A stretch of DNA of 62,716 bases, counting the filler, from Stramenopiles sp. TOSAG23-6 (taxonomy: Eukaryota), in the NCBI GenBank assembly GCA_900128565.1. It is 20 parts of 20 records of this genome, joined end to end, with 100 filler letters (N's around TTAATTAATTAA, not from the genome) between each part and the next. Parts side by side here need not be neighbours in the genome. Positions count along the whole stretch, not along the records: positions 9,457 to 12,507 come from LT637678.1; positions 12,608 to 15,655 come from LT637679.1; positions 15,756 to 18,801 come from LT637680.1; positions 18,902 to 21,947 come from LT637681.1; positions 22,048 to 25,091 come from LT637682.1; positions 25,192 to 28,233 come from LT637683.1; positions 28,334 to 31,374 come from LT637684.1; positions 31,475 to 34,514 come from LT637685.1; 12 more parts are not named here. The stretch is one strand, 5' to 3'. Shown here piece by piece: positions 9,560-52,217 of the stretch (the first letter of the stretch is position 1; each line of letters opens with the position of its first letter). Below the pieces are notes generated by a model. The model saw only the letters and a list, made by a program, of their open reading frames with translations. It did no database searches and was not told where the DNA came from. A program made the translations under genes and the position numbers.

Positions 9560-11238
9560 CTACCTCTCACCTTCTTTGATTTTTTATCTTTTAAAAATTG
9601 ACGTTTTTTCTTTTTTTCTCGTTTTTTTAAAATGGAATCGTTGATTGAACCTTCTTCATCCAATTTATTTGCTTCATTTTCAAGTTCTATCGTTTCAATT
9701 GTATCATCTTCAACTGCACCATGTATTTTGTAAAATATTTAAAAAAAAATTCTAAAAAATTTGTTAGGTACAAAATTTTTATAAAAAAAAAAATCGATTT
9801 TTTTTTTTTCGGTAAAAAAAAAAAATAAGACATACATCATTTTCGTCTATACTATTACTCTTTACATTTGCTTTTTCTTGGGCAAGTTCAGCAACAGTTT
9901 TACCTGCCATTAAAGCAGCTTTCTGATCTGCAATACGTTGCTCTTTTTTACTTAGTTTTTTTCGTCCAAATGTCATTTCTATTTTTCGTTTTTTACGTCC
10001 AATTAGAATATTCAATTCATCATTTATTGTTTTGCAAGTCAGACGAATGTATCGACGAAATTTCCAATTTAATTGCCAAAAAAAATTAAGTTTCCAACAA
10101 ATAAATGAAATTATAATAAATATCAAAAGGAATACAATACAAGGAAATAATAAAGGTAACCCAAACACATTCCAATAAGGAGCTGACAGTTTTGTTCCAC
10201 ATTGTAAACCTGTTGTGTTGGAAAAATATTTCAAAAAAAAAAAAAAAATCTTTTAGTTTAGGTACAAAATTTACTATAAAAAAAAATGTAGACTTTTTTG
10301 TAAAAAAAAAAAATAAAAACATACACCTCCGATAATAATAAAGAAAACCTAATTGTAAATCACAATGACCACATAGAGGACCAATATATCCAATAGAACA
10401 TGAATTATCTTGGACACCTAAAGTCTTTTCATCATTCATACTCATTATTGTATTGATTGGTCCAAATAATGTCGGTTTTACACCTGTATCCGGTGTCATA
10501 ACACCAAACTGTAATACCATGTATTTTGGAAAAATATTTCAAAAAAAAAAAAAAAATTGTTAGGTACAAAANNNNNNNNNNNNNNNNNNNNNNNNNNNNN
10601 NNNNNNNNNNNNNNNNNNNNNNNNNNNNNNNNNNNNNNNNNNNNNNNNNNNNNNNNNNNNNNNNNNNNNNNNNNNNNNNNNNNNNNNNNNNNNNNNNNNN
10701 NNNNNNNNNNNNNNNNNNNNNNNNNNNNNNNNNNNNNNNNNNNNNNNNNNNNNNNNNNNNNNNNNNNNNNNNNNNNNNNNNNNNNNNNNNNNNNNNAAAA
10801 TATTTCAAAATTTTCCAAAAAAAAAAATTTGTTAGGTAAAAAATTTTTTTACCAAAAAAAAAAATAAATTCGATTTTTTTTTTTAGTTTCAAAAAAAAAA
10901 AAAAAAAACATACATTGTTGTGTCACAATAACATTTGTCAAGGTGGATTTTGATTGAATCGTCCAGTCGTAATATCCTGGTAATATAGTGGGTACAATGA
11001 CACCAACAGTGGATAATCCACCATCAGTTAATTTTTGTCCAGTTGTACAATGCATTCCATCATCACAGGATGTACACATTGTATTATCATCATTATTATT
11101 ATTATTATTATTATCAGAGGTATCAGAGGTATCAGTATTATCCGTCTTTCTATTTAAAAAAGAATTAGGCTTACCTGTATTACTACAAAAATAAATAAAA
11201 AAAAACTGTTAGCTTAGGTATGAAATGTTGTAGTAAAC

Positions 11239-11280
<42 letters not shown>

Positions 11281-11673
11281 GGGAAAAAAATTCGTAAAAA
11301 AAAAAAAAATTTTTTCAAAAAAAAAAAAAAAAAAAAAAAAACATACATTGATTCTTCACGTCTTTTTTTTTGTAAATATTCATCTGGTGGTGCAATTTGT
11401 AAAAGACCATTTTCTAATGGAGTTTTTTTATTACTAATTGTGATGTTCTTTGCAGCGTTTTCCATTGGGGAAAGACAATTTTGAGTCAAATCTTGTTGTA
11501 ATGGACATATATTTTGGAAAAATATTTCAAAAAAAAAAAAAAAAATTGTTAGGTACAAAATTTTTTTACCAAAAAAAAAAAATATTCGTTTTTTTTTTTT
11601 TTTTTTTTTTCGGTAAATAATAAAAAAAATAAAACATACATTATTCCATGTAGATACGCAATTATATGGTGTC
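9560..11673 (-). CDS. multi-exon cysteine-rich membrane protein (receptor-like; CxxC modules, GPLCGHC, TM helix), partial
   Basis: Exon peptides CTSCDDGMHC, ILPGYY, CSIGYIGPLCGHC, RCLQCG plus a hydrophobic helix; interrupted by family introns and N gaps. Confidence 0.6.
9721..9835 (-). other. non-canonical GT-AT intron (family member), phase 0
   Basis: AAT GAT|GTATG...CAAAATACAT|GGT GCA GTT joins two ORFs in frame. Confidence 0.75.
10210..10324 (-). other. family intron with canonical AG end
   Basis: AGG T|GTATG...GTACCTAAAC...CCAACACAACAG|GT TTA CAA TGT gives RRCLQCG. Confidence 0.7.
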
Positions 11674-11867
11674 NNNNNNNNNNNNNNNNNNNNNNNNNNN
11701 NNNNNNNNNNNNNNNNNNNNNNNNNNNNNNNNNNNNNNNNNNNNNNNNNNNNNNNCATTTATTGTGAAAAATATATTTTTTTTTTGAAAATTTTTTTTTT
11801 TTTAGGTACAAAATTTACTATGAAATTTTTTTTTTTTTTTTTTTTTTTTTGAAAAAAATAAAATGTA

Positions 11868-12355
11868 CATCCCCGACTTTAAATATGACAATTTCTTTAG
11901 CAATTTTTCGTTTTGATTTGTTCTTAGGTAGTGATTTGCGTAATGATTTGCGTCGTGAAAGACCCATTGATTCACCATCAACCAAGCGGGAAAATTGAGC
12001 TTGATTTATTCTACCATTTTTTAAATGTTGACGAAGAATTTCAACATCTTGGCCTTGTAAATCTCTCAATGAATTTGTTGATAGTAGTGTTTTCACATCA
12101 CTTGAATTTGATTGATTGTGTACTGCCTCATTTGTTCTGTTTTGTTGTGAAGACAATTCATTAGCGTTAGGGTTTTCACTTTTCAAGTTTGCAGCAATTG
12201 CCGCATTGACTGTATCTTCATCAACGCCATGCGTTTCTAATAATGCAACGAAAGCTGATTTTGGAACTTTTCCGGATTGGACCAAATTTTGAACCATTTT
12301 AAGTTCTGCAATTGTTGCATCGGATACAACTTTTGGTGCAGGAATAGTTTCATAT
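11868..12355 (-). CDS. internal exon of a hypothetical protein
   Basis: Open non-repetitive frame bounded by family-type acceptor and donor signals. Confidence 0.5.
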
Positions 12356-12609
12356 AGTGTGAGAAAATATTTGAAAAAAAAAAAAATTGAAAACATTTTC
12401 ATAGAAAAAAAAAAAAATCATTGCAAAAAAAAAAAAAAAAAATTGAAAAAATTTTAAAAAAAAAAAAAAAAAAATCATTGCAAAAAAAAAAAAAAAAATA
12501 TATATAANNNNNNNNNNNNNNNNNNNNNNNNNNNNNNNNNNNNNNNNNNNNTTAATTAATTAANNNNNNNNNNNNNNNNNNNNNNNNNNNNNNNNNNNNN
12601 NNNNNNNGA

Positions 12610-12960
12610 CAATTAAATCTTGGTTATTGCTATTTTCATGGTCATGGTGTCGTTCAAGACAAAAAAGAAGCTTTCAAGTGGTTTACTAAATCTGCTAATT
12701 TAGGTAATAGCAAAGCACAATATGGTCTTGGTCGTTGCTATTATAATGGTCATGGTGTCGCTCAAGACAAAAAAGAAGCTATCAAGTGGTGTACTAAATC
12801 AGCTAATTTAGGTGATAGTGAAGCACAATATGATCTTGGTCGTTGCTATTTAAAAGGTAGTAATGGTGTTGCTAAAGACAAAAAAGAAGCTTTCAAGTGG
12901 TTGACTAAATCAGCGAATGCCGGAAATAGTAAAGCACAACAAATGTTAAGAGAAGTTTGA
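12610..12960 (+). CDS. SEL1-repeat (TPR-like) protein, C-terminal part
   Basis: Translated by eye: AQYGLGRCYYNGHGVAQDKKEAIKWCTKSANLG repeats ending at TGA 12958-12960; not in the ORF track because it lacks a start codon. Confidence 0.85.
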   Translation, partial: QLNLGYCYFHGHGVVQDKKEAFKWFTKSANLGNSKAQYGLGRCYYNGHGVAQDKKEAIKWCTKSANLGDSEAQYDLGRCYLKGSNGVAKDKKEAFKWLTKSANAGNSKAQQMLREV

Positions 12961-13181
12961 TGAAAGTCTTGAAATGTATTTCTACTTACCAAAGTTAAAT
13001 ATATTATAATTGTTGAATATATTATAATTTGATAATATACAGAATAAAAAAAGTATAAAAATCATTATCTATTGTATACCATTTTTTGTTTTTCCAATGA
13101 ATATTTTTATTTCAACAAAACCTAAAAATATCATTCTATAAATATCTGTTCAATACTCCTACTGTACTGCATACATCAATA

Positions 13182-14996
13182 CTACTGTACTGCTTGAAAA
13201 TCCAACTTTCTTCTTTGTAAGTCTGTTGCTTGTTTCCAATGATTCCGTAAATGTTGTTGTATTTTTTCTTTGTGTTGTTTTCTTTGTTGTCGATCTATTA
13301 TTAGATGTCTATGTACTTGATCTAGATAATATCTTTGATCTTTGATATCTCGATCTCTCATTCTTCTCTTTGCTCTTTCTTTGTCACGAACCTGTTTGTC
13401 AAGAGCACGCCGCAAACTTCTTTGAACTCGAGCTGCTTTTCGTTTATCTTTTTCGGTCACTTTAGATTTCATTGGCCTGTACTATAAGGAAAATACTACA
13501 AGTATGTTTTATTATGCAACGCCCAGGGTCCGGATCCGTCATAAAACGTCGTGAAGCATCCCGTTGTGCATCAATTTTAGCTTTGGCTTGTGCCTGTGCT
13601 ATTATATAATCACGATTTTCTTTTCTATTTTGACGTGACATTGCTAATTTTGATCTATGAGCAGCTTCCGATCGTTTACGTCTTCTCTGAATTTCCAAAT
13701 CGCTTTGTTGAAGCCTTTTTTTCTCTTCATCAAATGCTTTAGTCTGACGTTGGTATGCGATACTAATGGCATGATCTCTCAAATGAGAATTTCTATACAG
13801 TCTTTCCTGTGCATGTGATCTATGCTCGGGAATGAGAAATCGTGGTAGGACATCTCGGGCTGCTCTTGGACCTATTTTTTTAGGAAATATTTCAAAATGT
13901 TTTCATATATTAAGTTATGTTTCGTCCAACATAATTACATCTATAAAAAATTTAAAAAAAAAACCCATCAAGTCGTAAAAAACAAAAGTGTAAAGTGAAG
14001 AAAAGAAGAAGAAAAGAAGAAGAGAAAAACGTACAATGATCTGAAATTTTTGTATCTAAAATATTCAATAAATCACCTAATTGCATATCACTCATACTAT
14101 TTGTTATAGGCATTTTAGGTGTTTTTGTATACAGTTCTTGCGACATTTGATGTATATTATTCGAATTCTTGTTCAGGCCATTCTTACTTTTTGTTTTTTT
14201 CCTTTCTTTATATCCATTAGAACCATTAGTTGCACGAGATGATGTTCCATGAGCAGCTTCACGGACATCACTCAGAAAATGATCAGCAGTATCTACTTCT
14301 TTTTTTTTATCAAGCCCAGGAGTACCAAAATCATCCTCAGGTCCGTTTTTTGTCGTATTATCCCCTTTTGGTAATGGTAGTAAGCCAACCACTGGTTTAC
14401 CAGAAATCTCATAGCCATTCATATCTGCCTTGTCCTGAAAAAGTTGTGCAGTTGCCGACATGGAATGTGTTACTGGTCGATTTCGTGATGCTTCAGGATC
14501 CTGTTGGAACATATCTCGGGCATCTGCAACATTGAAACGAAATCCCATGAAACCTCGTTTCGCGAAAATAATACCAATACCAGGGAAATCAACTTGTAGG
14601 TGATGACCCTGACGTGCAAGACGACCAATGTGTTCAAGCATCCTACTTATTGCAATCCGTGCTTTATGCCATTAAAATTATGATTTTAATAGTAAATTTT
14701 ATTCGTACAACTACATAATTAGCATCAACAGAGGGAGCTTCTGAAGGAAGTGGATGTTCTCGTGTACGCAGGCCTCGTTTAAAAGTTGCGTCTAATCGGA
14801 AAACAAGTTTGTGAGTCTTTTTAATTATACAAAAACGACCAAAATTTGGAATTCGTACGCCTCTTCCGTTTCCGGTCTTTTCGCGTACAAATTCGGCTAA
14901 AGCATTCCATGCAGCTGCATTTGACTCTTCTACATCATTTATAAGGTCGGCTAAAGAATAATGTGTCTTTGATTCATTTTGTTGAGCGTCTGACAT
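13182..14996 (-). CDS. CCDC81-like protein (two HU-like domains plus coiled coil), multi-exon
   Basis: WNAL..FV...GRGVRIPNFGRF and second domain VDFPGIG, followed by long coiled coils; exon joins partly unresolved. Confidence 0.6.
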
Positions 14997-15314
14997 TGTA
15001 TATTTTCCCACACTTTTTGTATTAATGAAAAAAATGTCAGAAAGATCTTGAAGAGATACTAGTACTTTATATAATCCAGAAACGTAACGTTATTTTTTTT
15101 AAATGAAAAACACGAAATATTTTAAAAGAAAATTGGTACGTTAAACAATCAATGTTACAACAGATCCTTGTAGTACACTTCCCAATTGTTCGATCGACTG
15201 TACTTGCGCGCATAGGGTTTTACTGGCCTTTTGTTGCATCTCATAGAACTTTTATAATAGTTGACTTGAATTCCTGTTTATTTCACTTTTATTAATGCCA
15301 AAGATTCATAGACA

Positions 15315-15655
15315 ATGAATCATAAAGCTCCAGATCATCTGTATTGTCCACTGACAAAAAAAGTTTTCGTTGATCCTGTTCTTGCTTCAGATGGCAATAC
15401 ATACGAACGCGCTGCAATTGCAGAGCATATGCTTATCAATAACAAATCACCCCTTACGGGTAAAACCTTCTCGCATTCACATTTAACTCAAAATAATATG
15501 TGTAAAATGGAGTGTGAGTTATACCCCGCTACGTATACTATAGAAGAATTATGGCAACAAACGTCAAGAGCCAAAAACCCAACTAAACTTCTCGAAGTCT
15601 TGAACAGCATCACAAAAAAGGTCACCGAGTCCCGCAAAAATATTATTCATTTACC
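15315..15655 (+). CDS. U-box domain protein, 3' partial
   Basis: PDHLYCPLTKKVFVDPVLASDGNTYERAAI...SPLT. Confidence 0.9.
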
Positions 15656-16390
15656 NNNNNNNNNNNNNNNNNNNNNNNNNNNNNNNNNNNNNNNNNNNNT
15701 TAATTAATTAANNNNNNNNNNNNNNNNNNNNNNNNNNNNNNNNNNNNNNNNNNNNGTTGTTGTACGAAACCCTAACAATTCCAGATACTTTTTGTTAAGA
15801 AATTCTAGTCGGTTAAGAAATTCTAGTCGGTCATCTTTTTTTTTTTTAATGCATACAATACCACTACTGGATGTTTTAATTTTTCCTCATTTTACTACAA
15901 ATGTGACAGTGTATTTGAATGAAATTTCTGCAAAACATTGCAGAATAAACCAATACAATACTATATATAAAGGAATATTTTCTAAAAATTCATTTTTTAT
16001 TAAAAAAATATATATTTTTGTACTGATGCATCAAGAGGGTGGTCCAAAAACAGATAAATTTAATATCATCTTACTAATTGTCACACTTAAAACGTTTTAT
16101 ACCAAATTTTTTACCTAACAAAAAAAATGTCGAAAATGAAAAATTTCATGTCCCTGAAGATTATAAAAAGAATTATTCTATATTTATTTTGACACAAAAA
16201 TAAAAATACATCTACAATCCTCACATATCAAAACAAATAGCGGGTGTTCTACAAGCATATTCTCTTATTTATTTACAAAAAACAACTGTGTGGAAAACAC
16301 ACTGAAAACTAACATTCAGTGTTTTTAATAATAATCATATGCATGTCAGTCCAACAATTGGATATTTACAAACATATTATCTAAGCTACA

Positions 16391-18801: not shown

Positions 18802-19001
18802 NNNNNNNNNNNNNNNNNNNNNNNNNNNNNNNNNNNNNNNNNNNNTTAATTAATTAANNNNNNNNNNNNNNNNNNNNNNNNNNNNNNNNNNNNNNNNNNN
18901 NTACGTTTCCATGATACATTTCAAATATTTTTTTTTCGTACGAAATTCCGTACCTAACGATTTTTTGTTTTACTAAAAAAAAATATTTTTTCACAATACA
19001 T

Positions 19002-19635
19002 CCAAAGTCTATAATTTTCCTTACATGTGATGCATTTGGTGTACTACCACCTGTTGCTAAATTATCAAATGGACAAGCTATGTATGTTTTTTTTTTCAAT
19101 TTCGAATTTTGTTTTCGTATGAAAATTTGTACCTAACAAATTTAAGTTTTTTTTTTGTATCTACTACAAGAAAAATTGGAGAAACATGATTCGAATGCTT
19201 ATCTAGTTAATACTGGATGGACAGGTGGTGCATATGGTGTCGGGGAGCGAATGTTCGTTTCCATGATACATTTCGAATATATATATTTTTTTTTTTTTAT
19301 AGTAAATTTTGTACCTAACAACTTTTTGTGTTTTTCGGTAAAAAAAAAATATTTTTTCACAATTTATGTCTATCAAAGAGACAAGAGCTTGTATTGATTC
19401 AATTCTTGATGGTTCAATTTCTAATTCGACTTTTGTAAATGATTCTATATTTGGTTTCCAAATCCCACAAGGTTTACCAGGCGTATCAGCTGATGTATGC
19501 AATCCTCGAAATGCATGGGATGATAAAAACTCATATGATGTTCAAGCTGCAAAATTGGCTGATATGTTTCGTGAAAATTTCAAAAAATATTCAGAACCTG
19601 GAGTCACTGATTATACTGAATTTGGACCAAAGTAA
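19002..19635 (+). CDS. PCK1: phosphoenolpyruvate carboxykinase (ATP), C-terminal exons
   Basis: [21 protein letters not shown]...[44 protein letters not shown]. Confidence 0.92.
19253..19367 (+). other. non-canonical GT-AT intron (family member)
   Basis: CGA AT|GTTCG...GTACCTAAC...CACAATTTAT|G TCT ATC restores conserved G-x-R-M-S-I. Confidence 0.85.
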
Positions 19636-19795
19636 AAGATATGCTTCGTACACTTTAGGTGGATGAATTCTTTATTTTAGATATTGGATGGAGAGCGTAA
19701 ATGAGAAAAAAGATATTTTATGCTCATGTATATAAATTTTTTCTAATTTTGGAATTTGAAACTTTATTTGAAATTTTATAATTGACAAAATAGAT

Positions 19796-20785: not shown

Positions 20786-21894
20786 TCATGACGTTGTAGA
20801 TGATTCTGCGCAAGGAAGTTTTGACATAAAAATTCCCTTATCTTTTCGTTTCTTTTCAGCTTCAAACACGATTGAATTCACATAAATATCATCAAAACTT
20901 TCTCCCAACATGAAGACATCATGTCCTGACGACTGATTTGTGATTGAAATAACTTGTCGTGGTTGTACTCTAATATACCCATTTGTTCTCATCATTTGAC
21001 ATGTATTTTGGAAAAGAAATTCAAAAAAAACTAAAAAAAATTGTTAGGTACAAAATTTACTATATTACTATAAAAAAAAAATTTCAAATTAAAAAAAAAA
21101 AAAACGTACATAATAAAAAAAAAAAAACGTACATAATAAATCACGTTTAGGTTCCTCCCATGCGTGTTCTATCATCCAGACTCCCACAGTATGACTATGG
21201 AAAGGAAATTTTTTCAGAATTTCAAATTCACTGCCCTCCGTATCTATTGAAATGAAATCAATAAAGAAAGGTATGTTCAAATTGTTCTGATCTAATATTG
21301 TATCTATTGTTTCTGTCATCATTTTCTTTTTTCTGCCGTTTGCTTGTCTATTGGCTTCTTCCCGACGAGTTTGCCTTGACATCAAGTTTTCTATACCTCC
21401 CAAAGCATTAGCCATTGTGAAGAGAACCTCTTTTTTTTTGTCTGCTAAAACAATATGAAGTAGCGTACAGTGACGCTTGTCAAAATTATGTGGGAATGGT
21501 TCAATACAAATTCCTTGCCAACCTAGTTGTTCAAATAGTAAAGAATTTGAAAGATGTTGTCCATCATTTGCACCAATGTCAATAAAGAAATGTTGTATTT
21601 GACTTTCTATTTGTTGTTTCATGAGTATATTACGTGCTTCAGAAATAGAAGGCAGCAAACTTAACACACAAGCATCTTGTCCTACTTGGCTATGAATTGT
21701 AAGAACGTAATCAGTACGAATGTCACTACCAGAATAAAAATATTCTTTTCGACATGTTTCTGCAGATGTACAGGTTTTATCGCGTTTATCTATATCTATC
21801 TTTACCAAGTCAATATACTCTTGAACTATATGTAATACGTCACGTTGACACTGTGCTGTCCAATCTACAGTGGTCCCAGGACTATTAATATAAC
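20786..21894 (-). CDS. FkbM-family methyltransferase, 5' partial, spliced
   Basis: SQVGQD, FFIDIGANDG..SNS, GWQGICIEP, IDFISIDTEGSEFEIL; the last exon joins via intron 21001-21132. Confidence 0.85.
21001..21132 (-). other. non-canonical GT-AT intron with tandemly duplicated donor
   Basis: TTA T|GTACG...CCAAAATACAT|GT CAA ATG gives LLCQMMRTNGY; TTATTATGTACGTTT is repeated about 23 nt inside. Confidence 0.8.
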
Positions 21895-22047: not shown

Positions 22048-22083
<36 letters not shown>

Positions 22084-22156
22084 TTTTTTTTTTTTATACC
22101 AAAATTTGTACCTAAGCCTAAAAGATTTTTTTTTTTTGAAATATTTCTCACAATAT

Positions 22157-22711
22157 TGTGTTGCACGTAAAACAGTCTATGATGATCAAGCAGATTACTA
22201 TGATATGTCACAATCCCATTGGTTATCAGAAAAAGAACAAATCGATGCAGCTCGTCAAGATACTATCAATAGAAAAAAATTACACACTAAAACACGAAAA
22301 AAAGTCGCTTTAGATTTAGCCTCTCGGAAATTTATAGAAATTGATGAAAATGATGATATAAACCCCAACCCTAGTCAAAACCCTAACCCTTCAAGTAAAG
22401 ATTATTTAGATTCAAATGTACAAATCGGTATTGGATTGCATAGACAAAATAATATACAATCAAATGTGTCATCTACAGTTGGTAATAGAAGAATATCAAA
22501 TATTCAAAATGCACCTATTACATTACGTAAAGTATACAAATTAATACGAAACCCTAACCCTAACCCTACTCAAGTGCAGGAAGAGAAACGAAATGTTATT
22601 GACAAGAATAGTAATAGTCATAAAACTAATGAGACTATTGTTGGTAATGAAACTATACGATCAAATCGTCTTCAACATGGTATGGAAAATGGTCCAAGTT
22701 TTTTGTGGTGA
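22157..22711 (+). CDS. activating signal cointegrator 1 (TRIP4/ASC-1)-like, last exon
   Basis: RKTVYDDQADYYD..SHWLSEKE...ALDL matches the TRIP4 post-zinc-finger motif. Confidence 0.7.
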   Translation, partial: CVARKTVYDDQADYYDMSQSHWLSEKEQIDAARQDTINRKKLHTKTRKKVALDLASRKFIEIDENDDINPNPSQNPNPSSKDYLDSNVQIGIGLHRQNNIQSNVSSTVGNRRISNIQNAPITLRKVYKLIRNPNPNPTQVQEEKRNVIDKNSNSHKTNETIVGNETIRSNRLQHGMENGPSFLW

Positions 22712-22799
22712 AATAAAAAAAAAAAAAAAAAAAATATGATTTTTTTTTTTTTTTTTTTATTATTTGTATTATTTTTTTGAATTCGTGTTTTGCTAAGGA

Positions 22800-25002
22800 C
22801 TAAAAATTATATCCAGCAGGCAAATATCGACTCAATATTTCATTATCTTGAATAGCTAATGCAACGTCTTCCACTTGACAACCTAATAAGAGACGTGGAA
22901 ATGGCATATATTGTATAAAAATTAAAAATTTCATTTTTTTTTAGTTAGGTACAAAATTTTGTATGAAAAAAAAAAAAATGTACATTCATCCTTACAACAA
23001 ACATTTTCGCTGGTTGTTGCAATTGTAATAATGAACTCTCAGCCAAGCGACGACTGATGCGAAGAACATCTTGAGGTCCTGGAATTTTTGATATTCCTTC
23101 CACACGCAACCTATCTTGTGAATATATATTTAGTGTTTTTACTGTTTTTTTAGTGTTTTTTTAGTATTTTTAGTGTTTTTAATATTTACAAAAAAAAAAA
23201 AAAAAATTTTTAATTTTACAAAATTTTACAAAATGTTACATTTTGGAAACACGTACAAGGTGTTAAATCGTCTCAATACACTCGTAAAATCAGCATAATC
23301 AACACCAGATTTTCGTAAATCAATGGCCAAGGCTACAATCCACATTTGTTCAAAATAAGGTGCCTCGGTAATGAATTTTGGAAAAATATTTCAAAAAAAT
23401 TATAAAAAAATTGTTAGGTACAAAATTTCGTACGAAAACCAAAAAAAAAAAATCGATTTTTTTTTTTTTTTGGTTTAAAAAAAAAAATTAAAAAATTTGA
23501 AAAAAAAAAAAATAAAACATACATATTCAGGATTTGCAGTTAGAAAGGAAAGAGATTTGTCCTGAATAACAAAATACCAAGATCCAGATGAAAGAGTACT
23601 AAATGGACTAGATCCAGAAGATAGATGAAAGTACAATGGAGTCCCATGTATTGTGAAAAAAACACGAATTTTACAAAAAAAAAAATATTGTTAGGTACGA
23701 AATTTTTTTACGAAATTTTTTTACGAAAAAAAAAAAAATAAATTAATAAATTCATGATGAAAACCGTACAGTACGTAAAGTCTTGAAATATTCTTTCTCA
23801 ACTGATATTGTATGTGTTGTAAAATTAATGTTTTTGTTTCTTTCAGGAAGACCTGCTTTAGTATCACCTATTTTGTGAAAAAATATTTCAAATTTTTTTT
23901 TTTTTTTTTTTTTTACCGAAAAAAAATCGTTAGGTACAAAATTTCGTACGAAAAAAAAAATTTGAAATCTGAAATATATTTAAAAAAAAAATAAACGTAC
24001 CAGGCATAGTTTCGTGGAATAATGGAATTACATTGTCAATTCCACCTGCAAGACCTTCAACAATATGTTCTAATTCTGAAGCGTTGTTGTCATACTCATG
24101 AACATTTAAATGGTGATGATTCACTTTTGTTATGGTTGGATGTGCATACCCAAAAGCAGCTGAGTAACCAACTTCGCACTTTGGTACTGACGTTTCAGTC
24201 CATGTATTGTGAAAAAAAAAAAAAAAAAAAATTTTGTTTAGGTACAAAATTTTTATAAAAAAAAAATTTAGACAAAAAATTGAAAAAAAAAAAAACATAC
24301 ATGTATCTGGAAGCCCATCAGGAGACTTGTATTGACATCCTCTAAAATTTGTACATACTTCATTTCCATCTTCATCATTGTAACAATGGGCACTAAACCC
24401 TCCAAATACAGTACAAGCCCAATATTCAGAGTTATACTGTTTATCTCCAGTCCCTCTTGTACTAATATGTATTTTGGAAAAATATTTAAAAAAAAAATTT
24501 TGAAAATTTGTTAGGTACAAAATTTTTATGAAAAACCAAAAAAAAAAAATTCGATTTTTTTTTTTTTTTTTTACCGAAAAAAAAAAAATAAAACATACAT
24601 ATGGAAACAATTTTTCTATACGACTACAGTTCGACGACTCATTTTCAATTTCTACCGTTACCCGGTTCATTCTTGGATGACAAGCTCCAATATCACATGA
24701 GCCACCTTCTCCTCTTTCACATGTATCACAATCTGAATCCCAACCAATGCAAGTATTGTGAAAAAATATTTTTTTTTTTTTGGATAATTTTTTTTTTGTT
24801 AGGTACGAAATTTCGTACGAAAAATTTTTTTTTTGATAAAAAATTTAATTTTGAAAATGTACAACACTTGGATGATTTTTTGAGTTGTGATTGATAGCAA
24901 GCACAGGAAGATTTGCAACCTTCTCGATTTGTTGCACAACTCCCCCAATGTGAGCTAGAATTATATTGCGGTAGTGTACACACTACTTTATTATTAGATA
25001 TC
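22800..25002 (-). CDS. intron-dense cysteine-rich hypothetical protein (about 9 exons), 5' partial
   Basis: A continuous peptide can be built across family introns (…KCCIGWDSDCDTC…LFPYISTRG…PDTWTE…MPGDTK…LRTGTP…RMNMPFP…YNF*); one junction near 23370 is unresolved. Confidence 0.6.
22908..22983 (-). other. GT-AT intron (family member)
   Basis: ATG AAT|GTACAT...GTACCTAAC...ACAATAT|ATG CCA TTT gives the longer, more protein-like last exon. Confidence 0.6.
23646..23769 (-). other. GT-AT intron (family member)
   Basis: CGT ACT|GTACGG...CACAATACAT|GGG ACT; the only stop-free frame in the following exon. Confidence 0.75.
23868..24000 (-). other. family intron with canonical AG end
   Basis: CCT G|GTACG...TTCGTACGAAATTTTGTACCTAAC...CACAAAATAG|GT GAT. 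Confidence 0.75.
24202..24300 (-). other. GT-AT intron (family member)
   Basis: ACA T|GTATG...CACAATACAT|GG ACT gives DTWTE. Confidence 0.75.
24467..24598 (-). other. GT-AT intron (family member)
   Basis: CCA TAT|GTATG...CCAAAATACAT|ATT AGT; 132 nt, in frame. Confidence 0.75.
24751..24862 (-). other. family intron with GT-TT ends
   Basis: TGT T|GTACAT...CACAATACTT|GC ATT GGT TGG; the nearby AT positions give out-of-frame stops. Confidence 0.65.
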
Positions 25003-25191
25003 CATATATTTTGGAAAAATATTTGAAAAAAAATCTAAAAAAATTGTTAGGTACAAAATTTCGTACGAAAAAAAAAATTCGATTTTTTTGTNNNNNNNNN
25101 NNNNNNNNNNNNNNNNNNNNNNNNNNNNNNNNNNNTTAATTAATTAANNNNNNNNNNNNNNNNNNNNNNNNNNNNNNNNNNNNNNNNNNNN

Positions 25192-33269: not shown

Positions 33270-34449
33270 CTATGACAACTGACTCTTCAATATTTTGTAG
33301 ATAGCAGCACCTGCAACTTGACTTGAACTTCTCACAGTAAGTTGAAACGCATTCGCTTCAGGATTTTTTACAATGCGCAGGAGTGTTCCATATTGTGTTG
33401 ATTTACTATTTTTACCCATCTTCATCGTTTGTAGAATTCCAACACAAGTCATAGATAATGATGGATCAACGTCAATGTCCTCCACGATAGCAAATTTCAT
33501 CACACGTGTTTTATCATCACCATCTTTATAACAAATCAATTTTCGTATTTTGTCTAAATCGTTACAATTAGGTCCTATAGGGATTTGTCCTTCCGTTTGC
33601 TTCTCTTCACTTCCCAAAGATTTCCAAAGATGAGTGAATCTAGGCTTTGATAACTTAGATGTACCGACGAAATTCGTAAGAACAACAGGTAAGCGAAGAG
33701 GAAGCGTATATCGAATTCCATTGGCTACGAATTGAAGTGTAATACCTGGTGGCATTTCAAAAGGAGCATGTATTTTGGGAAAATATATATATATATTTAC
33801 CGAAATTTGTTAGGTACGAAATTTTCTATTAAATTTTTTTTTNAAATGTAGGTAAAACATTCAATTTTTGAAACGTACATAGCAAATCCATTTAATAATT
33901 TGCTTTTGTTGTTGACCAATACTGATATTTGATGGAACATCACCAACCTGAAACTTTAAAGCATTGTCTGATCCTTTCATATCCATTTTGACAGAAAATT
34001 CAACAAGATCTGAATTTGATTGGTTTCCATAGAATAATTGCATTCGTCCTTGTGCTCCTCGATATTCATGTAAGAGCCCAATTTGTATATTTTTATCTTG
34101 ATATAAAACAGAGCGAGACATGACAACTAGATTCTTGAACCAAGATAATAATTTTGGAGATAGTTCATTGGGTATACCACGTTCTTCAATTACTTTTGTT
34201 TCTGCAATATCGAGAAGATCATGTATTTTGGAAAAATATTTCAAAAAAAATTCGTTAGGTACAAAACTTCGTACGAAAAAAAATCGAATTTGAAAAAAAA
34301 AAAAAATACATCATTAGCACTCTTACCGCTAACCTCATCTCCACTATCTTCTTCATTACTATCATCTTCTCCGGACACATTATTTTGCTTAATACCAAGG
34401 ATACGGTGACTTTCTTTTCGTCTCAACTCTGAGGTTTCTCGATCAATCC
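33270..34449 (-). CDS. AP2A: AP-2 complex alpha subunit, hinge and appendage exons
   Basis: DLLD hinge motif, VLYQDKNIQIG...LFYGN, LRLPVVLTNF, F..LWKSL, LLRI..NP....LTVRS. Confidence 0.85.
33768..33878 (-). other. GT-AT intron (family member)
   Basis: TGC TAT|GTACG...CCCAAAATACAT|GCT CCT TTT gives ICYAPFEMPP. Confidence 0.85.
34221..34309 (-). other. GT-AT intron (family member)
   Basis: AAT GAT|GTATT...CCAAAATACAT|GAT CTT CTC gives SANDDLLD. Confidence 0.8.
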
Positions 34450-36175: not shown

Positions 36176-37537
36176 ATGTCTGCGTCTATTGAAGCAACAA
36201 TGGGAATTGGTATTCGTTCTATAGTAGAATCTAAAACGTTTCACGCAATGTGCATGAATTTTGCGACATTATACGGCGCTTTGTTTACAATGAGTTTATT
36301 TTTGATCAACCCTTCAAAATTGACGTCCTCAAAGTCAAAGTCAACGTCTCGCTGGTTACCTCCATGTAGTTCATTCGGCAATGCAAAACGCGCCACAGAG
36401 ATATGGTTTCTTGGATACGGTTGTATTTGGATTACAGTTTTTGCATGTATAATTGGTGGAGGAATGTATAATTGGTTTGATTCTGAACACTACCTGATTG
36501 TTTGTATCGGTTTAGCTGCACCGCTGTTACTTCAGCCATTTATTTTCCCAGCTCTTACCAGTGAAGCCGATGTACCTCTCATTGAACGATATTCTTTTAA
36601 AGCAAATGTATGGATTGCTATATTTAGTTTTATTGGAAATTATTGGTATACTCATTACTTTTATAGTGTTCTAAAAGCAACCTATACATTTCCATCTCTA
36701 GATTTGAATGGTGTTCCCATCCCAATGTTTTTCGCAACCCATTTTTACTTTTCATTTTATCATACACTATCAAATTTGATATTACGTAAAATTGATACGA
36801 CATATGAAGCTGGAATTTGTCGTTTTTTATTTAGTATTGTTTTGATCATGGTAATGAGTTATACAACAGCATTTATGGAAACTTTGACAATTGCTGGATT
36901 TCCTTGTACGTTTTTGTTCACAAACCCTAACCCTAACATTTTTTTTCAAAAAAAAAATTCATAGGAAATTTTGTACCTAACAAAATAGTTTTACTTTTTT
37001 GAAATATTTTTTTAAAAAATATGTTATCAGTTTGAAGACTTTCATCAAGCATGTACTATTGGTTCTGCATTTTATGGTATTTATTTTCTTGTTAGTTTTC
37101 CAATGTTTCGAAGAATTGATGAAATTCATGTATGTTTTTTTTTGTTACTATGAAAATTGTGTACCTAACAAAATTTTTTTTTTTTTTTTTTTTGAATTTT
37201 TTTTTTGAATTTTTTTTTTGAATTTTTTTTTGATTTTTTAGAATGAATTTTTTTTTTTGGTAATCAATTCTGTACCTAACAAATTTCAAACTGTACTCCT
37301 ATTTTTTACAATACAACATATAAATGAAATTTGGATGATGACAGGTTTGTCCTCTACACCGAAGCAAAACACTGATAAAACGTGTATACAAAAAAATTCT
37401 TCATCTACCACACAATGGAAAGTACCATCGAATCTAAAATCAACAAAATCACGAAATCAAGAAATAAATTCACCTACAATAATTCAATGTAAATTCAGTG
37501 TATTTCAAGTGATTATGGAAGCTTTAGCTACGGGAAT
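36176..37537 (+). CDS. CPI1: cycloeucalenol cycloisomerase (cyclopropyl sterol isomerase), 3' partial
   Basis: RYSFKANVWIAIFSFIGNYWYTHYFY, GVPIPMFFATHFYF, TAFMET...FPCYQF...GSAFYGIYFLVSFPMF.RIDE. Confidence 0.9.
36906..37022 (+). other. GT-AT intron (family member)
   Basis: CCT T|GTACG...GTACCTAAC...AAAAATAT|GT TAT CAG TTT gives FPCYQF, matching the CPI1 FPYYEF region. Confidence 0.85.
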
Positions 37538-40506: not shown

Positions 40507-40584
40507 TTAGTACTAGTAATAATACAAATAGTTTAATGATGTATACACGACAAAAAAAAACAAAAAAAACAAAAAAAAGTAACA

Positions 40585-40622
<38 letters not shown>

Positions 40623-45749: not shown

Positions 45750-46311
45750 AAATGCCACGTAACTTTAATATTCAACTACGTTTTATGATTAAATTGTGAT
45801 CAGTTGTACATAAAAATTTCCTACAACAATGGAGTAAATACGAGAAGATATATAATAAAATCAAGTTATGTAGATTATGTCTTTTCTTTTGGAGAGAAGA
45901 AATTCTGGAAAGAAATTCTAACCAAGTGTAAGGACTTAGAGAGCTCAGAGGAGGAGCAACCTTTTTTTGTTTCTATCGCGCATGTTTAAATTTTTTTTTG
46001 ATGTGTGTGTGATGTCCTTCTTTTTTGTCAAACATTAAAAATGTAATGACGTCATACTAACACTAGTATAAAATTTCCATATATAAAAATTTTAATAGTC
46101 AGCATAATCTTGACACAAAAGTTCGAAAGAGAGAGAGAGAGATGTAGAGAGAATGTCTCATCTTATTTTACGTAGTACTAGGACCTATAGCTATATAGTA
46201 CACTAGCTAGTAGAATCTAATTATGTATAGTTAAACAGAAATTGTTTGTAACCAAATTTACCTGTATTGATTATACAACAAGAGTTTATACATCTCAATT
46301 TGAAAAGCAGT

Positions 46312-46765
46312 ATGATGTCAGATTATCTTCCTGTATCTCAGCGTGATTCAAAAGATGTTGACGTAAAATTGGAGGGTCACTGCGTCCTCGATCGCATAGC
46401 TTCACTCCAGCGTACTCTTGGTTTCATTTTTATCGTTTTTATACACAATGTATTTATCCTTCGTATCCAATATTGGATGTTGTTCATTGTGAGTAATTCA
46501 TTGATTGTATCTGCCGCTGTGTGTATCTTTTTTGCTGGAACAATATCACCTGGTACACGTGAGGAATGGAATAGCCATGTCCTCAAAACGAGTACAACCG
46601 ATACAACCGATAAACGCCTTGTTGTCTCCACACATTCAAAGGATATTGAGAATACTATTGGAAACAGTGAATATGCAAGGGAAAACAATTGGAAACACAA
46701 TTGCGACAAATGTAACCAACAAACGAGACCTAAGCGAGCTCATCACTGTCGGATTTGTGACACTT
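46312..46765 (+). CDS. DHHC palmitoyltransferase, first exon
   Basis: Two TM helices, SPG, then CDKCNQQTRPKRAHHCRICDTC. Confidence 0.85.
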
Positions 46766-46879
46766 GTATGTTTTTTGTAGGGTTTTTTTCAATTTTTTTT
46801 TTTTTTTTTTATAGTAAATTTTTTACCTAACAAAAAAAAAAAAAAAAAAAATTAAAAAAAATATTTTCTAAAAATACAT

Positions 46880-47030
46880 GCTATTCAATTGAGTGGTACA
46901 TTTCAATACTGTGTTCGATTGTCAGCATATGTGGAAACCATGATGACGTCATTTGAAAGAATTGTTCAATATGAAAATCTCCCATCGGAACCTGGTTTAC
47001 AATTACAATTGACAAAACACGAAAAAACGA
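46880..47030 (+). CDS. exon of an ABCC/MRP-type ABC transporter
   Basis: AIQLSGTFQYCVRLSAYVETMMTSFERIVQYENLPSE, the end of ABCC TMD2 (…E..M.S.ER..Y). Confidence 0.75.
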
Positions 47031-47164
47031 AAAAAAAAAAAAAAAAAAAAAAATTGAAAAAATTNNNNNNNNNNNNNNNNNNNNNNNNNNNNNNNNNNNN
47101 NNNNNNNNTTAATTAATTAANNNNNNNNNNNNNNNNNNNNNNNNNNNNNNNNNNNNNNNNNNNN

Positions 47165-47851
47165 CACAAATTGCATCTATTCCAATATCACCAATGTAAC
47201 ACGAATGTACGTCTAAAAATTGAATGTAGGGTTAGGGTTATAAAAGAAAAATTATATTTTAAATTTGTTAGGTACAAAATTTCGTACGAAAAAAAAAAAA
47301 AAATTCTGAAATATTTTGAATTGAATAAAACGCAAAACACTAATGAATAGAACAACGTACAGAGACTTATTTTCAGTTAAGAATTGGCTCAAGGCAACTG
47401 CACCATCATCAAGAATTGCATTTGCACTTAAATCTAAAGTTAACAATGTTGAGTTACGTGAAAGAGCTTTTGCAATATATTGAGTACCAATATTCGTAAT
47501 TGAGTTACAACTTAAATCAAGTTGTGTAATAGTTGTGTTGCATTGTAAACCTTCAACCAGAGCATTTATATGAGTACCAAGACCTTTAAAAGAAAATGAA
47601 GCAATCGATGACGATTTGTTATTCTCTTGTAACAAACGTATACAATCCTCCCATGTTTCAGGTTTTATTGTTTTTGTTGTTTTTGTTGTTTTTGTTGTTT
47701 TTGTTGTTTTTGTTGTTTTTGTTGATGTCCCGTTTGATGTCAAACTATTGTCCTGATTTTTTTCATCAAACTGCCTTGAAGAAAATGATTTTTCCTTTGA
47801 CTTTACCTTTGACTTTGATTTATTAAGAAAACCTCTTTTAAAACCAGACAT
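47165..47851 (-). CDS. RNI-like (NLRC3-type) leucine-rich repeat protein, 3' partial
   Basis: NTTITQLDLSCNSITNIG, NSTLLTLDLSANAILDDG, spliced NKSLQFLDVHSCYIGDIG. Confidence 0.85.
47224..47360 (-). other. GT-AT intron (family member)
   Basis: TCT CT|GTACG...TTCGTACGAAATTTTGTACCTAAC...CCCTACAT|T CAA restores the LRR consensus NxSLxxL. Confidence 0.8.
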
Positions 47852-48295
47852 GATTGTACAGCTTTATAGTACGTGCAGTGTGTTATAAATATGAAGTGCC
47901 AAGCTAGACAGAATGTAAGTCGTAATTATTGTTGTGTGTCAGGGTACGACTAGTTATCCACAACAGTCGCAGACTCTATGTGTTTATAATGTATTGTACA
48001 GAACAAGTAATGAGTTAATGGATAATTATGAATTCAATGTCTGGTCATTCACCAATCGTATTCGTAGCATCAATAAATAACAATGGATTTGTTGAGAAAT
48101 CGAAATTTATTACATACAGTTGTTTGTGTCAAAAAAGTTTTTCATCTCTCTCGATCTCATCTCGGACAAACCTGTTTAGTACGTACTATACTATACTAAA
48201 GAAAGTCAGTTCTTTTTGACTCATCCCCCAAACGACAAAAGAGTAAACGTGTGAAAATTTACTTAGAAACTAAAAGTTGCCGTCAACTTAATATA

Positions 48296-50066
48296 ATGGT
48301 TTCTGCTACAATACCTTCAGAGTTATCTGGATTTTCTCCCAATCGCGAGTTGTTTGCTTTGGTGACTTCTTCAAACCGTATTAAAATATGGGATACAGCA
48401 ACAGGTTCACTTAAAAGTGAGTTTGCAGAAGACAATCATTTACAGGTTCATGTCACGTCTTTTTGCTGGGGAACAACCACCACAACAACATCTTTAGAGA
48501 CGTCTAAGACTAAAAAAAAGTCACAAACATCACGCAAGAATAAGGCGACAAAGACATATATTGCCGTTGGTACATCTACAGGTGACGTCATTGTGTGGAA
48601 CGTTCAGAAAGGAGAACAGGTCTGCCGTTGTTCAGACAATGGCGCCGGGGGAACACAGCCCATTACTGATATTGCGTTTAATACAAAAGCATCCAAATTA
48701 TATTCATCAAACAAAGGTAAAGTTATCCATGAGTGGAGTATCCCAACCGGGAAGCTTATTCGTACTTTACAAGGACAAAAATATGGTACGACAAAACTAT
48801 CAGTCAGTCCAGATGGAACGAAACTGGTCATTGGGGGGGGAAATATTAAAATAATTGAAGTCTCGTCTGGTGAAGTTCAATGCTCAATGAAAGGTCATGG
48901 TTCTTCGCGTATATCTTGTTTATCATTTACACATGATTCACAATATATTGTATCCGCAGCTCAGAATGATCGTTTCATACTTGCTTGGAATATTAAAGAA
49001 GCAGAAGAAGCTCCTCATGCAACTCTTCATTCAACTGAGTCACAACTCATTCTCAAATCGTGTCCGATATCAATTGATATATCATTCTCACGTACAGTAG
49101 GGCAACAATGTCTTATTTCAGCAACTACTGTTAATGGAAGTGTATGTATTTGGGGTATGGATTCATTACATAACTCAGGTCAAGTGTATCCATCATCCGT
49201 TATATCTTCAAACAACATTGCTTCAAACAATGAAACCAAACAAATGAACAAAATGAAGAAAAACAATGACAAATCAGTTGAAAAAATGATACAAAAATCA
49301 TTACTTAATGATGGTGACATTGTCCGTTCATCATTTATCGTATCAAAACATAAACAACATACTGATTCAATCATTGTCGCAAGAGGATCGCCATCAGCTC
49401 CATTGTTTACAAAAGTCCCTATAACAAAAAACAATCAGTTAATTTCAGTCGAATTACCAAAAATCAACAAAACATCACTTTTTTTACAACCTACAAATTC
49501 AAACAATCTTAAAAATTCAACAACAACAANANATAATAATGTACATGTAATAACTGGTGCTGAATCAACATCATCTGGTGTTTTAAAAGCAATCAATAAA
49601 ATTGATGGAAAAACCAAATCAAATCAAAATTCACCAAAACGAAAACGAAATTCAACAAATGATGAAATTGTTGAAATTAATGAAAAAAATACAAAAAAAT
49701 ACAAAAAAATCCAAGGACAACAAAATTCACAGGAACACTTAACTAACCCTAACCCTAACACAAATACAACAAATAAATCATTGGAAGATTGTGCAAAAGA
49801 AGCAGCAAAAAGAGCAGCTCAACGGTTACAAAACATGACAGAATCTAACCCTAACCCTAATAACCCTAACCCTACTAACAACCCTAACCCTAATACAATG
49901 TGTTTGGATGCAGTGAAAGCAAATTCTTTAACAACAATGTTAGAACAAGGTTTACAAAGTGGAGATAATAATCTTATTGAAAATGTGTTAGTGGTACAAG
50001 ATTTGAAAATTATCGATGCAACTATTGATCAATTATCGATTTCGTGCATTGTACCATTACTTGAAT
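48296..50066 (+). CDS. WDR43: WD40 repeat protein WDR43/UTP5, 3' partial
   Basis: N-terminal WD40 repeats (RIKIWDTATG); C-terminal Utp12 domain SLTTMLEQGLQSGD..LIE.VL...I..TI. Confidence 0.8.
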
Positions 50067-50359
50067 GTAGGTTTTTTTTTTTTTTCAAAAAAAATTTTTT
50101 TTTTTTTTCAAAAAAATTTTTTTTCGTAGATAATTTTGTACCTAAGAAAAAAAATTCCAAATTTTTTTTTTTTTTTTTTTCCAAAATTTTTTTTTTTTNN
50201 NNNNNNNNNNNNNNNNNNNNNNNNNNNNNNNNNNNNNNNNNNTTAATTAATTAANNNNNNNNNNNNNNNNNNNNNNNNNNNNNNNNNNNNNNNNNNNNTT
50301 TTTTTCGTACGAAATTTTGTACCTAACGATTTTTTTTGAAATATTTTTTCAAACTACAT

Positions 50360-52217
50360 GCTTGTAGATTAAAATCGCTATTTTTGGAATGCAGTGAAAA
50401 TGATATGAGTGAATTAGAGGTAGATAATAACGAAGCGTTTTTTATGGGTGTAGCATTTTGTGGTGTCGCAGGAGAAACTAGTGAAAGTAACAATCCTCAA
50501 AATAATTATAATACACTAGAAAAGCGCCGATTTCGTGTATTAAAGAGTTGTTGTGGAATCATGTTATATATATTAGGAAAAGATCAGTATCATCATCGTG
50601 CTAGACATATGCTAGCCTTTGGGATTCGTAATGGTCGAGTATTGGCAGAAACCGCTGGAATTTCTTCATCAATTGTAGAAAAATTTGGTTTAGATCAAGC
50701 TGTTGAAATTTATTCACCTTTATTTGAACGTTCAAAACTTAGGCAAATTGTTGCTGTATGGATTCATGTACGTTTATTTTCCTATACATTTTCCTATACA
50801 TTTTTTTTATTATTTTTGTTTTTTCGTAAAAACATTTTGTACTTAACATTTGTTTTTTACCAAAAAAAAATATTATTTCACAGTATAGGATACTACTGCT
50901 ACTGGTTTTTTTGCATTGGAAAAACATCAAGCAAAATATGATTACTTGCGTAATAAGTACGTAACAACGTATATAAATATGTTGTGTAAACAAGATCCAA
51001 TAAAATGTCTTGTCCGTCTTGCTTCTCTTCAGAAAAATATCATGAACAAAACTTTCATGTCTTCTGAATCGAATCAAAATCTTCGAAAGTTGTGGTTGGA
51101 TTCTGTTTTTGTTGCCCGACTGAGTGTACTTGCACGTACTTTACCGACTAAAGAATCCAAAGTAATATCGAGGCTTTATGGTACGAATACAGCAGACACT
51201 CTTGCACAAGAATCTTTTGAGTTTCATAATAATAATGAAAAAGATGAAAAATTAGAAATTGTATATTCTTTATACATTTCCATCCTAAAGTCAACACATA
51301 TATTTAACCAAAGTCGCCGAATTATCCATGCAGATGTTTATATTTCCGATTTACCCGGTGTTTCTGCAATGTATCAAAAGATGAAAATAGAAAAAGAAGA
51401 ACGAAAACATAATGAATTAGTTCAAGCCGCAGAGCTTCTACTAGTTGGATTTTATGTAGGGTATAGAATGAAGTCATATTCTAAAATATTAACTAGCAAA
51501 GATTCTCTTGTTCAAGTACGTCTTTTTTGTGAAAACAAATGGCCTGAACAATTAAGCGGTGGAAGAGGGAAATGGATAAAATTATCAATGTCATACAAAT
51601 ATCCAGAGTTAGTCAAACCAACTGTACAAGGGTCAAAAATAAAAAATAAACAAGAAAAGAAAGTCAATGATACTCTATCAAATAAACAAGAAAAGAAAGT
51701 CAATGATACTCTATCAAATAAACACGAAAAGGAAGTCAATGATACTCNATCAAATAAACAAGAAGTCAATGATACTCTATCAAATAAACAAGAAAAGAAA
51801 GTCAATGATACTCAATCAAATAGTTTAGTTTTTAAAAGTAAGTTAAATAAAAACACTAATAATGCGGATGATGAAGCAACATTATCATGTGATGAAGGTT
51901 CGAAATCTGGTTGTACGAACTCAATTTTAAATTTACCAAGTGCTACCCCTCAGATTGCGATTGTACCAATTGCCAAGGATGATGTAGTTATTTGTGATGC
52001 TCAGAAAGACTCAGAAAAAGATGAAGTCAATGATAGTATGATTATAGAGGAAGAAGTTCCAAAAATGACGGATAGTACTACTAATTCACTACTTTGTGAT
52101 TCTAACCCAAATAACTTGAAATTAAAATCTCAGGCTGAAAAAGAATACAAAATTAGTGAAAATACAAAACTTTCGTGTAATAATAATATAATTACAACGA
52201 GTACTGTACCAATGTAA
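50360..52217 (+). CDS. hypothetical protein, last two exons (50360-50767, 50889-52217)
   Basis: ORFs join in frame through family intron 50768-50888 ending GTATAG. Confidence 0.6.
51645..51818 (+). repeat. coding 33-bp tandem repeat (NKQEKKVNDTLS)
   Basis: About 5 copies of AAATAAACAAGAAAAGAAAGTCAATGATACTCTATC-like units. Confidence 0.85.

Follow-up and report, generated by a model that had tools for sequence, protein, structure and literature searches.

A repeated GT...AT intron family, probably of introners, in contigs of Stramenopiles sp. TOSAG23-6

What determines the 3' end of an intron when members of one repeated family terminate in AT, AG or TT at what appears to be the same place? 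The question is raised by a stretch of 62,716 nucleotides (nt) from the assembly of Stramenopiles sp. TOSAG23-6 (GCA_900128565.1), referred to here as the window, which is composed of 20 contigs of 3,028-3,053 bp each, sorted by size and separated by 19 linkers N44-TTAATTAATTAA-N44 (for instance, 3054-3153, 6206-6305 and 9357-9456); no feature is readable across these linkers. The first-pass annotation of the window had proposed that the acceptors of this intron family are defined by sequence context and distance, and not by scanning to the first AG. We find that the family members are probably introners, that is, copies of one small non-autonomous DNA element inserted in coding exons and excised by the major (U2-type) spliceosome. 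The G+C content of the window ranges from 20% to 40% per 2 kb, its long open reading frames (ORFs) are open with the standard genetic code, and searches of the window against Rfam and for tRNAs returned zero matches. All junctions reported below were placed by reading frames and homology.

A repeated element in coding exons

Altogether, about 45 copies of a short element were found in 13 of the 20 contigs, with the common layout GTAYGTTTT ... TGTACCTAAC ... GAAATATTTTTYCAMAATAY followed by two nucleotides. Its branch-like 11-mer, TTGTACCTAAC, has 28 exact occurrences in the window and 64 matches at up to two mismatches, compared with 18.4 expected and a maximum of 26 in shuffled sequences. The same modules are common to the 19 complete copies that were aligned, which are 78-152 nt in length; a composite copy outside the alignment reaches 159 nt. 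Module 1 consists of GTAYGTTTT and a T-run, and 30 of 30 donor modules begin with GT. Module 2, which is optional, is an A-run/T-run palindrome around TCGA and may represent an internal hairpin or a nested insertion. Module 3, (TTCGTACGAAA)TTTTGTACCTAAC, contains the putative branch site and is followed by a U-rich spacer and then by GAAATATTTTT; the 3' module after it reads CCAAAATAY or TCACAATAY and precedes the two terminal bases. The host genes encode PEPCK, a PIF1 helicase, alpha-adaptin, OGT, a tyrosinase and a methyltransferase, and further copies reside in orphan genes. Near-identical copies occupy unrelated sites in unrelated genes, as introners do. No autonomous element was seen that could serve as the transposon partner of the family, and a metagenome scan with the pattern TGTACCTAAC N{10,40} AAATATTTTT yielded at least 116 loci, with zero family members among the matches listed, all of which are chance matches.

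All 20 complete copies lie in the sense orientation, the abutting ORFs being longer on the element's own strand in each case. When a copy is removed from its GTAYGT donor to the family 3' position, the best flanking frames join in phase in 16 of the 20. One copy (23522-23371) fails this comparison and three are uninformative, namely 46766-46879, which joins unrelated exons, 11639-11507, which abuts Ns, and 22983-22906, which precedes the last exon. Sense insertion into coding sequence with restoration of the frame on removal is a further property that the family shares with introners.

At three AT copies, exact removal is required by the continuity of a Pfam profile or a PDB structure. The intron of the PEPCK (ATP) gene at 19253-19367 (+; GAAT|GTTCGT ... 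CACAATTTAT|GTC) falls between position 422 of the PEPCK_ATP profile, where the upstream exon ends, and position 424, where the downstream exon starts, with position 423 in the split codon. In the PIF1-like helicase gene, the upstream exon of intron 2762-2856 (+; GTAT|GTACGT ... CACAATAAAT|GTG) reaches position 54 of the PIF1 profile and one residue more, the split codon corresponds to position 56, and the downstream exon continues from 57. The third intron, at 33768-33878 (-; CTAT|GTACGT ... CCCAAAATACAT|GCT), lies in the gene for an alpha-adaptin appendage; against 1w80_A (AP-2 alpha appendage), upstream residue 119 corresponds to residue 103 and downstream residue 3 to residue 107, which makes a gapless join.

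Terminal dinucleotides, flanking repeats and acceptor choice

The 31 readable 3' modules end in AT (27 copies), AG (3) or TT (1). Of the 27 AT copies, 25 have CAT or TAT as their final triplet and two have AAT; the first exon base after the intron is G in 24 of the 31. The three AG copies and the TT copy (24751-24862) were all located where the first-pass annotation had put them. Its claim that AG occupies the position of AT is exact for 23868-24000 (-; TTTCACAAAATAG|G; phase 1) and 50768-50888 (+; TTTCACAGTATAG|G; phase 0), where AG stands 7 nt after TTTCAC, but is one base off for 10210-10324 (-; CCAACACAACAG|G; phase 1; 71 + 142 open codons), whose AG is one base further from the T-run than the AT of its subfamily. 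The exon that follows 23868-24000, 98 nt long (23867-23770), finishes in the phase 0 required by the next intron. The exon preceding 50768-50888 ends in AT. As had been noted, the first AG of this intron (CACAG) is not in frame; it stands 5 nt ahead of the AG that links frames of 147 and 286 open codons.

The spacing of branch A and 3' end, earlier given as 34-49 nt, is 33-49 nt in 30 of the 31 copies; the full range extends to 62 nt, the maximum being reached by 23868-24000. An AG occurs between the branch and the intron end in 12 of the 31 copies, always 8-19 nt past the branch A, and there is none in the other 19. Of the 24 AT or TT copies tested (those without a following N), 18 have their next downstream AG out of frame and six, including the TT copy, have it in frame. 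Because the distance varies from 33 to 62 nt and ATs within GAAATATTTTT are bypassed, neither distance nor the first AT sets the site, and context matters. The proposed definition of the acceptor by context, without first-AG scanning, is therefore retained, most copies having no usable AG, but the role given to distance is not.

The TT copy (24751-24862, -; GTT|GTACAT ... CACAATACTT|GCA; phase 1; 57 upstream and 272 downstream open codons) had been said to end in TT of necessity. TT is present at the family 3' position and in phase, but the frame would also be kept with an AG 18 nt further on, which means that the intron need not end in TT. In late-spliceosome structures, the branch adenosine recognises the penultimate A of the intron, and the G that starts the intron recognises its final base. 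A 3' end of A and a pyrimidine would be a smaller departure from this arrangement than TT, which is a reason to doubt a TT acceptor. Conversely, the 18 bases in question are exon-like, and TT stands on both sides of the intron, the preceding exon also ending in TT, which favours precise removal; on balance we lean somewhat towards TT use.

Flanking sequences were compared for 34 donors. These remained of 59 pattern hits once secondary GTTTTT hits, a single internal duplicate and three sites outside the family had been excluded. The exon end before the donor is AT in 25 of the 34, the remaining 5' flanks being TT (3), GT (2), TA (2), TG (1) and CT (1). Since the same dinucleotide recurs at the exon end and at the intron end, the last two bases of the intron are best read as one copy of a 2-bp target-site duplication. 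AT|GTAY...ATAC-AT|G is likewise best read as the signature of a GTAT...ATAC element with such a duplication, the intron being the element plus one copy. Inverted ends are confined to GTAT...ATAC (ATGTAT...ATACAT with the flanks). The third flank base is Y in about half of the donors, and its match is not above chance. A 3-nt duplication or a longer inverted repeat was considered and rejected, the third base matching in a few copies only (24300, 59986).

The two bases that precede the terminal dinucleotide are AC in 16 of the 31 copies and AT in seven, the rest being AA, TT, TC, GC or CC. The ends are thus unequally conserved, and the GT...AT register is favoured by the comparison of GT in 30 of 30 donors and final AT in 27 of 31 copies with the preceding AC in 16 of 31. 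The first-pass annotation had taken the AG copies as independent anchors of this register. A T-to-G change in the downstream duplication copy could, however, turn AT...AC into GT...AG with the mRNA unchanged, so these copies are no strict anchor, and the repeated flank dinucleotide leaves the register unanchored at the level of the mRNA.

According to the introner reading, the element would bring the donor GTAYGTTTT, a strong branch site TGTACCTAAC, a U-rich tract and the context bases CAMAATAY, with branching predicted at the A of TACCTAAC. The acceptor would be the downstream copy of the 2-bp target-site duplication, usually AT, and excision of the element with one duplication copy would give back the original reading frame. 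The second splicing step would ligate after A and a pyrimidine (CAT or TAT) in a fixed context, without scanning to the first AG. AG copies would be those in which the last T changed to G; they tend to be more decayed, which suggests a slow conversion to canonical ends. Compared with this scheme, the earlier observation is largely right and its interpretation half right, the cause being the duplication-derived acceptor of a mobile element. We further suggest, as a tentative extension, that routine ligation after A-T by the major spliceosome evolved independently in an uncultured or little-studied marine protist, which may be a stramenopile and is not a tunicate, with older copies drifting to AG. 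The driver would be an introner that is active, duplicates a 2-bp AT target and has flooded the genes.

Other explanations share part of this evidence. The same element and the same mRNA would result if the intron lay two bases to the left, AT-GTAYGT ... CAMAATAC, that is, AT...AC, and we regard this as unlikely. It would account for the upstream AT in 25 of 34 donors and for the element-terminal AC in 16 of 31 copies with an identical mRNA in most of them, and splicing is known, from yeast suppressor work and from AT-AC introns, to tolerate the combination of a first-position A with a last-position C. Against it, no part of the 3' module varies more than the putative terminal AC, whereas the AT that follows is found in 27 of 31 copies; GT is invariant in the 30 donors, which do not resemble the minor-intron motif ATATCCTT; the AG copies fit GT...AG only; and a dinucleotide other than AT precedes nine of the 34 donors. 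In one AT copy (23646-23769, -; phase 0), whose upstream exon ends in CT and which has no flanking repeat, the two registers predict unlike mRNAs. Copy 36906-37022 has unlike flanks as well. It is considerably less probable that these are ordinary GT-AG introns, with the true acceptor at TTTTAG 8-19 nt past the branch or at the next exonic AG, and the AT an artefact of reasoning from frames in a poor assembly. The assembly does have frameshifts and chimeric joins, 12 of 31 copies have an AG soon after the branch, six of 24 AT or TT copies have an in-frame downstream AG, and only the AG at +7 or an additional base keeps 23522-23371 in frame. However, there is no residue to spare or to add at the three homology-validated junctions, the downstream AG would break the frame in 18 of 24 copies, 19 of 31 lack an upstream AG, and use of an upstream AG would put about 30 nt of poly-U-rich sequence into conserved domains.

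Removal by other means than the spliceosome appears about as improbable, or slightly more so. It could take the form of DNA excision in expressed nuclei, as in ciliates, or of removal through an end-pairing fold, as in the nonconventional introns of Euglena, and short AT-rich elements with a repeated dinucleotide and inverted ends would suit either. In three of the four copies folded, the donor junction is base-paired with the final 8-9 nt of the intron in the minimum-energy structure, but the z-scores are weak (-0.3 to -2.8) and the PEPCK copy, whose removal is obligatory, has no terminal stem. Compensatory variation between the intron ends was not observed, the TT copy having TT at both ends and not TT with AA. 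We read the end pairing as a relic of the inverted ends. DNA excision, moreover, needs neither a canonical donor, a strong branch motif and a U-tract nor the coding strand; the gene-strand independence of ciliate-type eliminated sequences is not seen here, 20 of 20 copies being in sense with splice signals, and the long frames are open under the standard code. Least probable of all is an absence of splicing, the copies being artefacts of assembly or transposons inserted into dead genes. Copies are cut by contig ends at 13 of 40 ends and there are chimeric joins, but 16 of 20 copies are in phase where one third would be by chance, all are in sense, and conserved domains are intact on either side of the validated copies.

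A number of observations weigh against removal of the copies as GT...AT introns derived from a transposon. With matching flanks, GT...AT, TG...CA and AT...AC yield the same mRNA. No empty site was found, and AT, being palindromic, may belong to an inverted repeat ATGTAT...ATACAT. An AT flank is present in one of the three named AG copies, or in one of five when two decayed relatives are included; a simple T-to-G story for the AG copies, most of which lack the AT flank, therefore needs additional changes. The copy at 23371-23522 (-) is out of frame at the family AT; an end moved downstream by one base (CATT|), or by 7 nt to an AG (TACCGAG|), would put it in frame. The latter would mean that an AG is still used where available; an end at CATT| is among the possibilities, given the frameshifts and chimeric joins of the assembly. 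Three further places show that the assembly is not reliable at these repeats. At 19082-19166 (+), the PEPCK profile runs through positions 321-353 upstream and restarts at 393, with about 39 positions lost; probably two family introns collapsed and the exon between them was lost in assembly. At 46586-47062 (+), a DHHC-type zinc-finger exon (...HHCRICDTC) is followed by the family intron 46766-46879 and then by an exon without the DHHC motif, which by eye looks like the terminal part of an ABC-transporter membrane domain; the contig is probably chimeric, with the false join at the repeat. At 650-700 (+), the second cNMP-binding domain of a PKG-like kinase contains an apparent frameshift without intron signals (FFGKLSLL in one frame, PRALSSGSVTV in the next), which is an assembly error or a real defect.

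Sequencing reads add to these counterpoints. A run search with 22048-25091 returned 11 runs, each with a 0.05 share of the sampled words, and the reads of four runs on this contig had zero joints at intron borders, a result that is uninformative on splicing either way. In three of these runs (X2, X7 and X8), coverage of the contig is confined to low-complexity or repeat parts. The fourth (X1), a seawater metatranscriptome, contains many pieces of the family 3' module at 95-99% likeness, so that the organism or a close relative occurs in the sea; one contig of 196 nt from this run covers 24604-24776 as unspliced exon-intron sequence and spans the 3' border of the TT copy. The Cys-rich gene that bears TT and AG copies had zero matches among transcript-derived proteins of near or shorter lengths and none in Pfam.

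Further copies, assembly and host

Several other AT copies illustrate the range of the family. Intron 24467-24598 (-; phase 0) contains an A-run/T-run palindrome, and 24202-24300 (-; phase 1) has ATACAT both at the exon end and at the intron end. Long palindromes of this kind, centred on TCGA or CGAA, occur in a subset of copies (23430-23480, 24535-24580 and 11570-11620 (-); for example, CCAAAAAAAAAAAAAAATCGATTTTTTTTTTTTGG). The copy in the FkbM-type methyltransferase gene (21001-21132, -; phase 1; 268 + 70 open codons) has a tandemly duplicated 5' end. The shortest copy, of 78 nt (22906-22983, -), leads in the family register to a tail of 20 codons; an end two bases earlier (CAATAT|), with a tail of 35 codons, is a possibility in an assembly with frameshifts and chimeras. 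In the OGT gene, the intron at 6768-6886 (+) ends in ...TTTACTATAG, and its phase 2 frame fits ACTAT| (AT) and not the overlapping ATAG| (AG).

Composite introns with two branch modules, which derive from nested or tandem element copies, are found at 59828-59986 (-), 53923-54081 (-) and 37130-37320 (+). In the first of them (phase 2; 330 + 40 open codons), exon and intron both end in a 10-nt repeat, CACAACGCAT. Two decayed relatives of the family end in AG. One of these, at 23111-23256 (-; GTACGT ... TTCACAAGATAG|G), is without a branch module and has AG at the family position; its first AG (CACAAG) would introduce a stop codon and is bypassed for ATAG. The other, at 13872-14034 (-; TT|GTACGT ... 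GAAATATTTCCTAAAAAAATAG|G), lies in a CCDC81-like gene. The same gene has two canonical GT-AG introns of about 46-48 nt (14670-14720 and 13483-13530, -) that are unrelated to the family, so the genome holds a second, ordinary intron class.

The branch module lies within 130 nt of 13 of the 40 contig ends, which indicates that the assembly breaks at the repeat. Gene prediction restricted to GT-AG would mis-annotate most genes here, and assemblies break or mis-join at the copies. A separate observation concerns telomere-like repeats, whose density is far above chance. Nine exact (CCCTAA)2 or (TTAGGG)2 12-mers and further 11-mers occur in introns and in coding sequence, where they give NPNPN runs (22552-22563, 36925-36936, 49747-49758, 49849-49860, 49882-49893, 54266-54277, 55725-55751 and 59349-59360).

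With low confidence, the proteins of the window point to a marine protist, possibly a stramenopile. Among the best 120 of 721 relatives of the OGT fragment (6887-7669), the eukaryote-named ones are all stramenopiles and none are animals; the stramenopiles among the matches listed include Chrysophaeum, Leptocylindrus, Lagenidium, Phytophthora and Pythium, at 44-52% identity. The window also encodes an ATP-type PEPCK and an FkbM-type methyltransferase. A PX-kinase and a GHITM-like protein have animal clusters as their Atlas neighbours, a feature-based comparison that is biased to well-sampled groups, and the best sequence matches of the GHITM-like protein, where named, are an ostracod record or an ancyromonad, which is not decisive. 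A larvacean host, considered in view of the Fritillaria parallel discussed below, the 46-48-nt GT-AG introns and the animal-like Atlas neighbours, was rejected in view of the OGT matches listed.

Comparison with known systems

The closest precedent is found in Fritillaria, where introns arise from small mobile elements, and the present host appears unrelated to it. Henriet et al. reportedly described in 2019 that non-canonical introns of Fritillariidae derive from small mobile elements. According to the excerpts of Soo et al. (2026; PMC13326754), on which the comparison rests, 3'AT is the commonest intron end in Fritillariidae (44% in F. pellucida and 34% in F. borealis), a U-rich tract stands ahead of 3'AT, the same YAY triplet occurs before the donor and at the intron end, and non-AG ends are bound by divergent U2AF paralogues. 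Both systems have multicopy families with a 3' end of A and a pyrimidine; an origin from transposons and an acceptor taken from the duplication are probable for the family here as well, and the Fritillariid pattern of a YAY end with the same motif before the donor is present here, NAT preceding 25 of 34 donors. In contrast to the major Fritillariid classes in these excerpts, AG/AC and AG/AT, the donor here is canonical GTAYGT, with GT in 30 of 30; the repeat is 2 nt (AT), and the family has a strong branch motif. The host also differs, the OGT matches, PEPCK_ATP and the FkbM-type methyltransferase being unlike a larvacean.

The remaining comparisons likewise draw on excerpts of the sources cited. 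Introners that co-opt one splice site from a target-site duplication have been reviewed (PMC11282704). Those of Micromonas, Aureococcus, dinoflagellates and others (Huff 2016; Gozashti 2022 and 2025) are, as is probable for the present family, short non-autonomous elements with inverted ends and target-site duplications that bring one splice site and co-opt the other, and they are commonest in aquatic protists; however, they end in canonical AG (or AC), whereas the family here mostly ends in AT. The introner survey of Gozashti (2025; PMC12130899) accepts only AG and AC as 3' ends and, in the excerpted text, discards unfamiliar ends unless supported by RNA, so a GT...AT family in an unannotated genome would be missed. 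Amoebophrya is also a marine protist with many non-canonical introns that have duplications and inverted repeats, but its duplications vary from 3 to 5 nt, both intron ends are non-canonical and U1 small nuclear RNA is apparently absent, whereas the donor here is canonical (Farhat 2021, as covered in PMC11282704). For minor introns of Physarum polycephalum, the excerpts give GT-AT as 17% of the non-canonical ones and propose a TA-duplication transposon as their source (10.1101/2020.10.12.336362). Physarum introns combine the donor [GA]TATC[CT]TT with a TTTGA branch whose distance from the 3' end is 9-12 nt, in contrast to GTAYGT and 33-62 nt here. Neither the minor (U12-type) donor [GA]TATCCTT nor the minor-intron branch TTCCTTRAC near the 3' end was found in the family, which has GTAYGTTTT (ATGTAYGT if shifted) and the module GTACCTAAC 33-62 nt away. 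In the literature searched, no paper combined 'introner' and 'GT-AT', and the excerpts of two papers on marine stramenopiles (MAST; PMC5269757, PMC5778133) contain no mention of non-canonical splice sites.

The GT...AT family is thus a new instance of a known phenomenon, and its confirmation by RNA is worthwhile, as the host seems unrelated to Fritillaria. If RNA confirms the junctions, one family with AT, AG and perhaps TT at the same place would be a natural experiment on acceptor choice; with a canonical donor and a yeast-like branch site, the acceptor alone varies. If the introner reading is true, the window shows a path from transposon insertion to canonical intron, and gene callers and introner surveys limited to AG or AC would miss a whole intron class in this lineage. 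Duplication-derived acceptors of the kind seen in Fritillaria would then have arisen independently outside animals.

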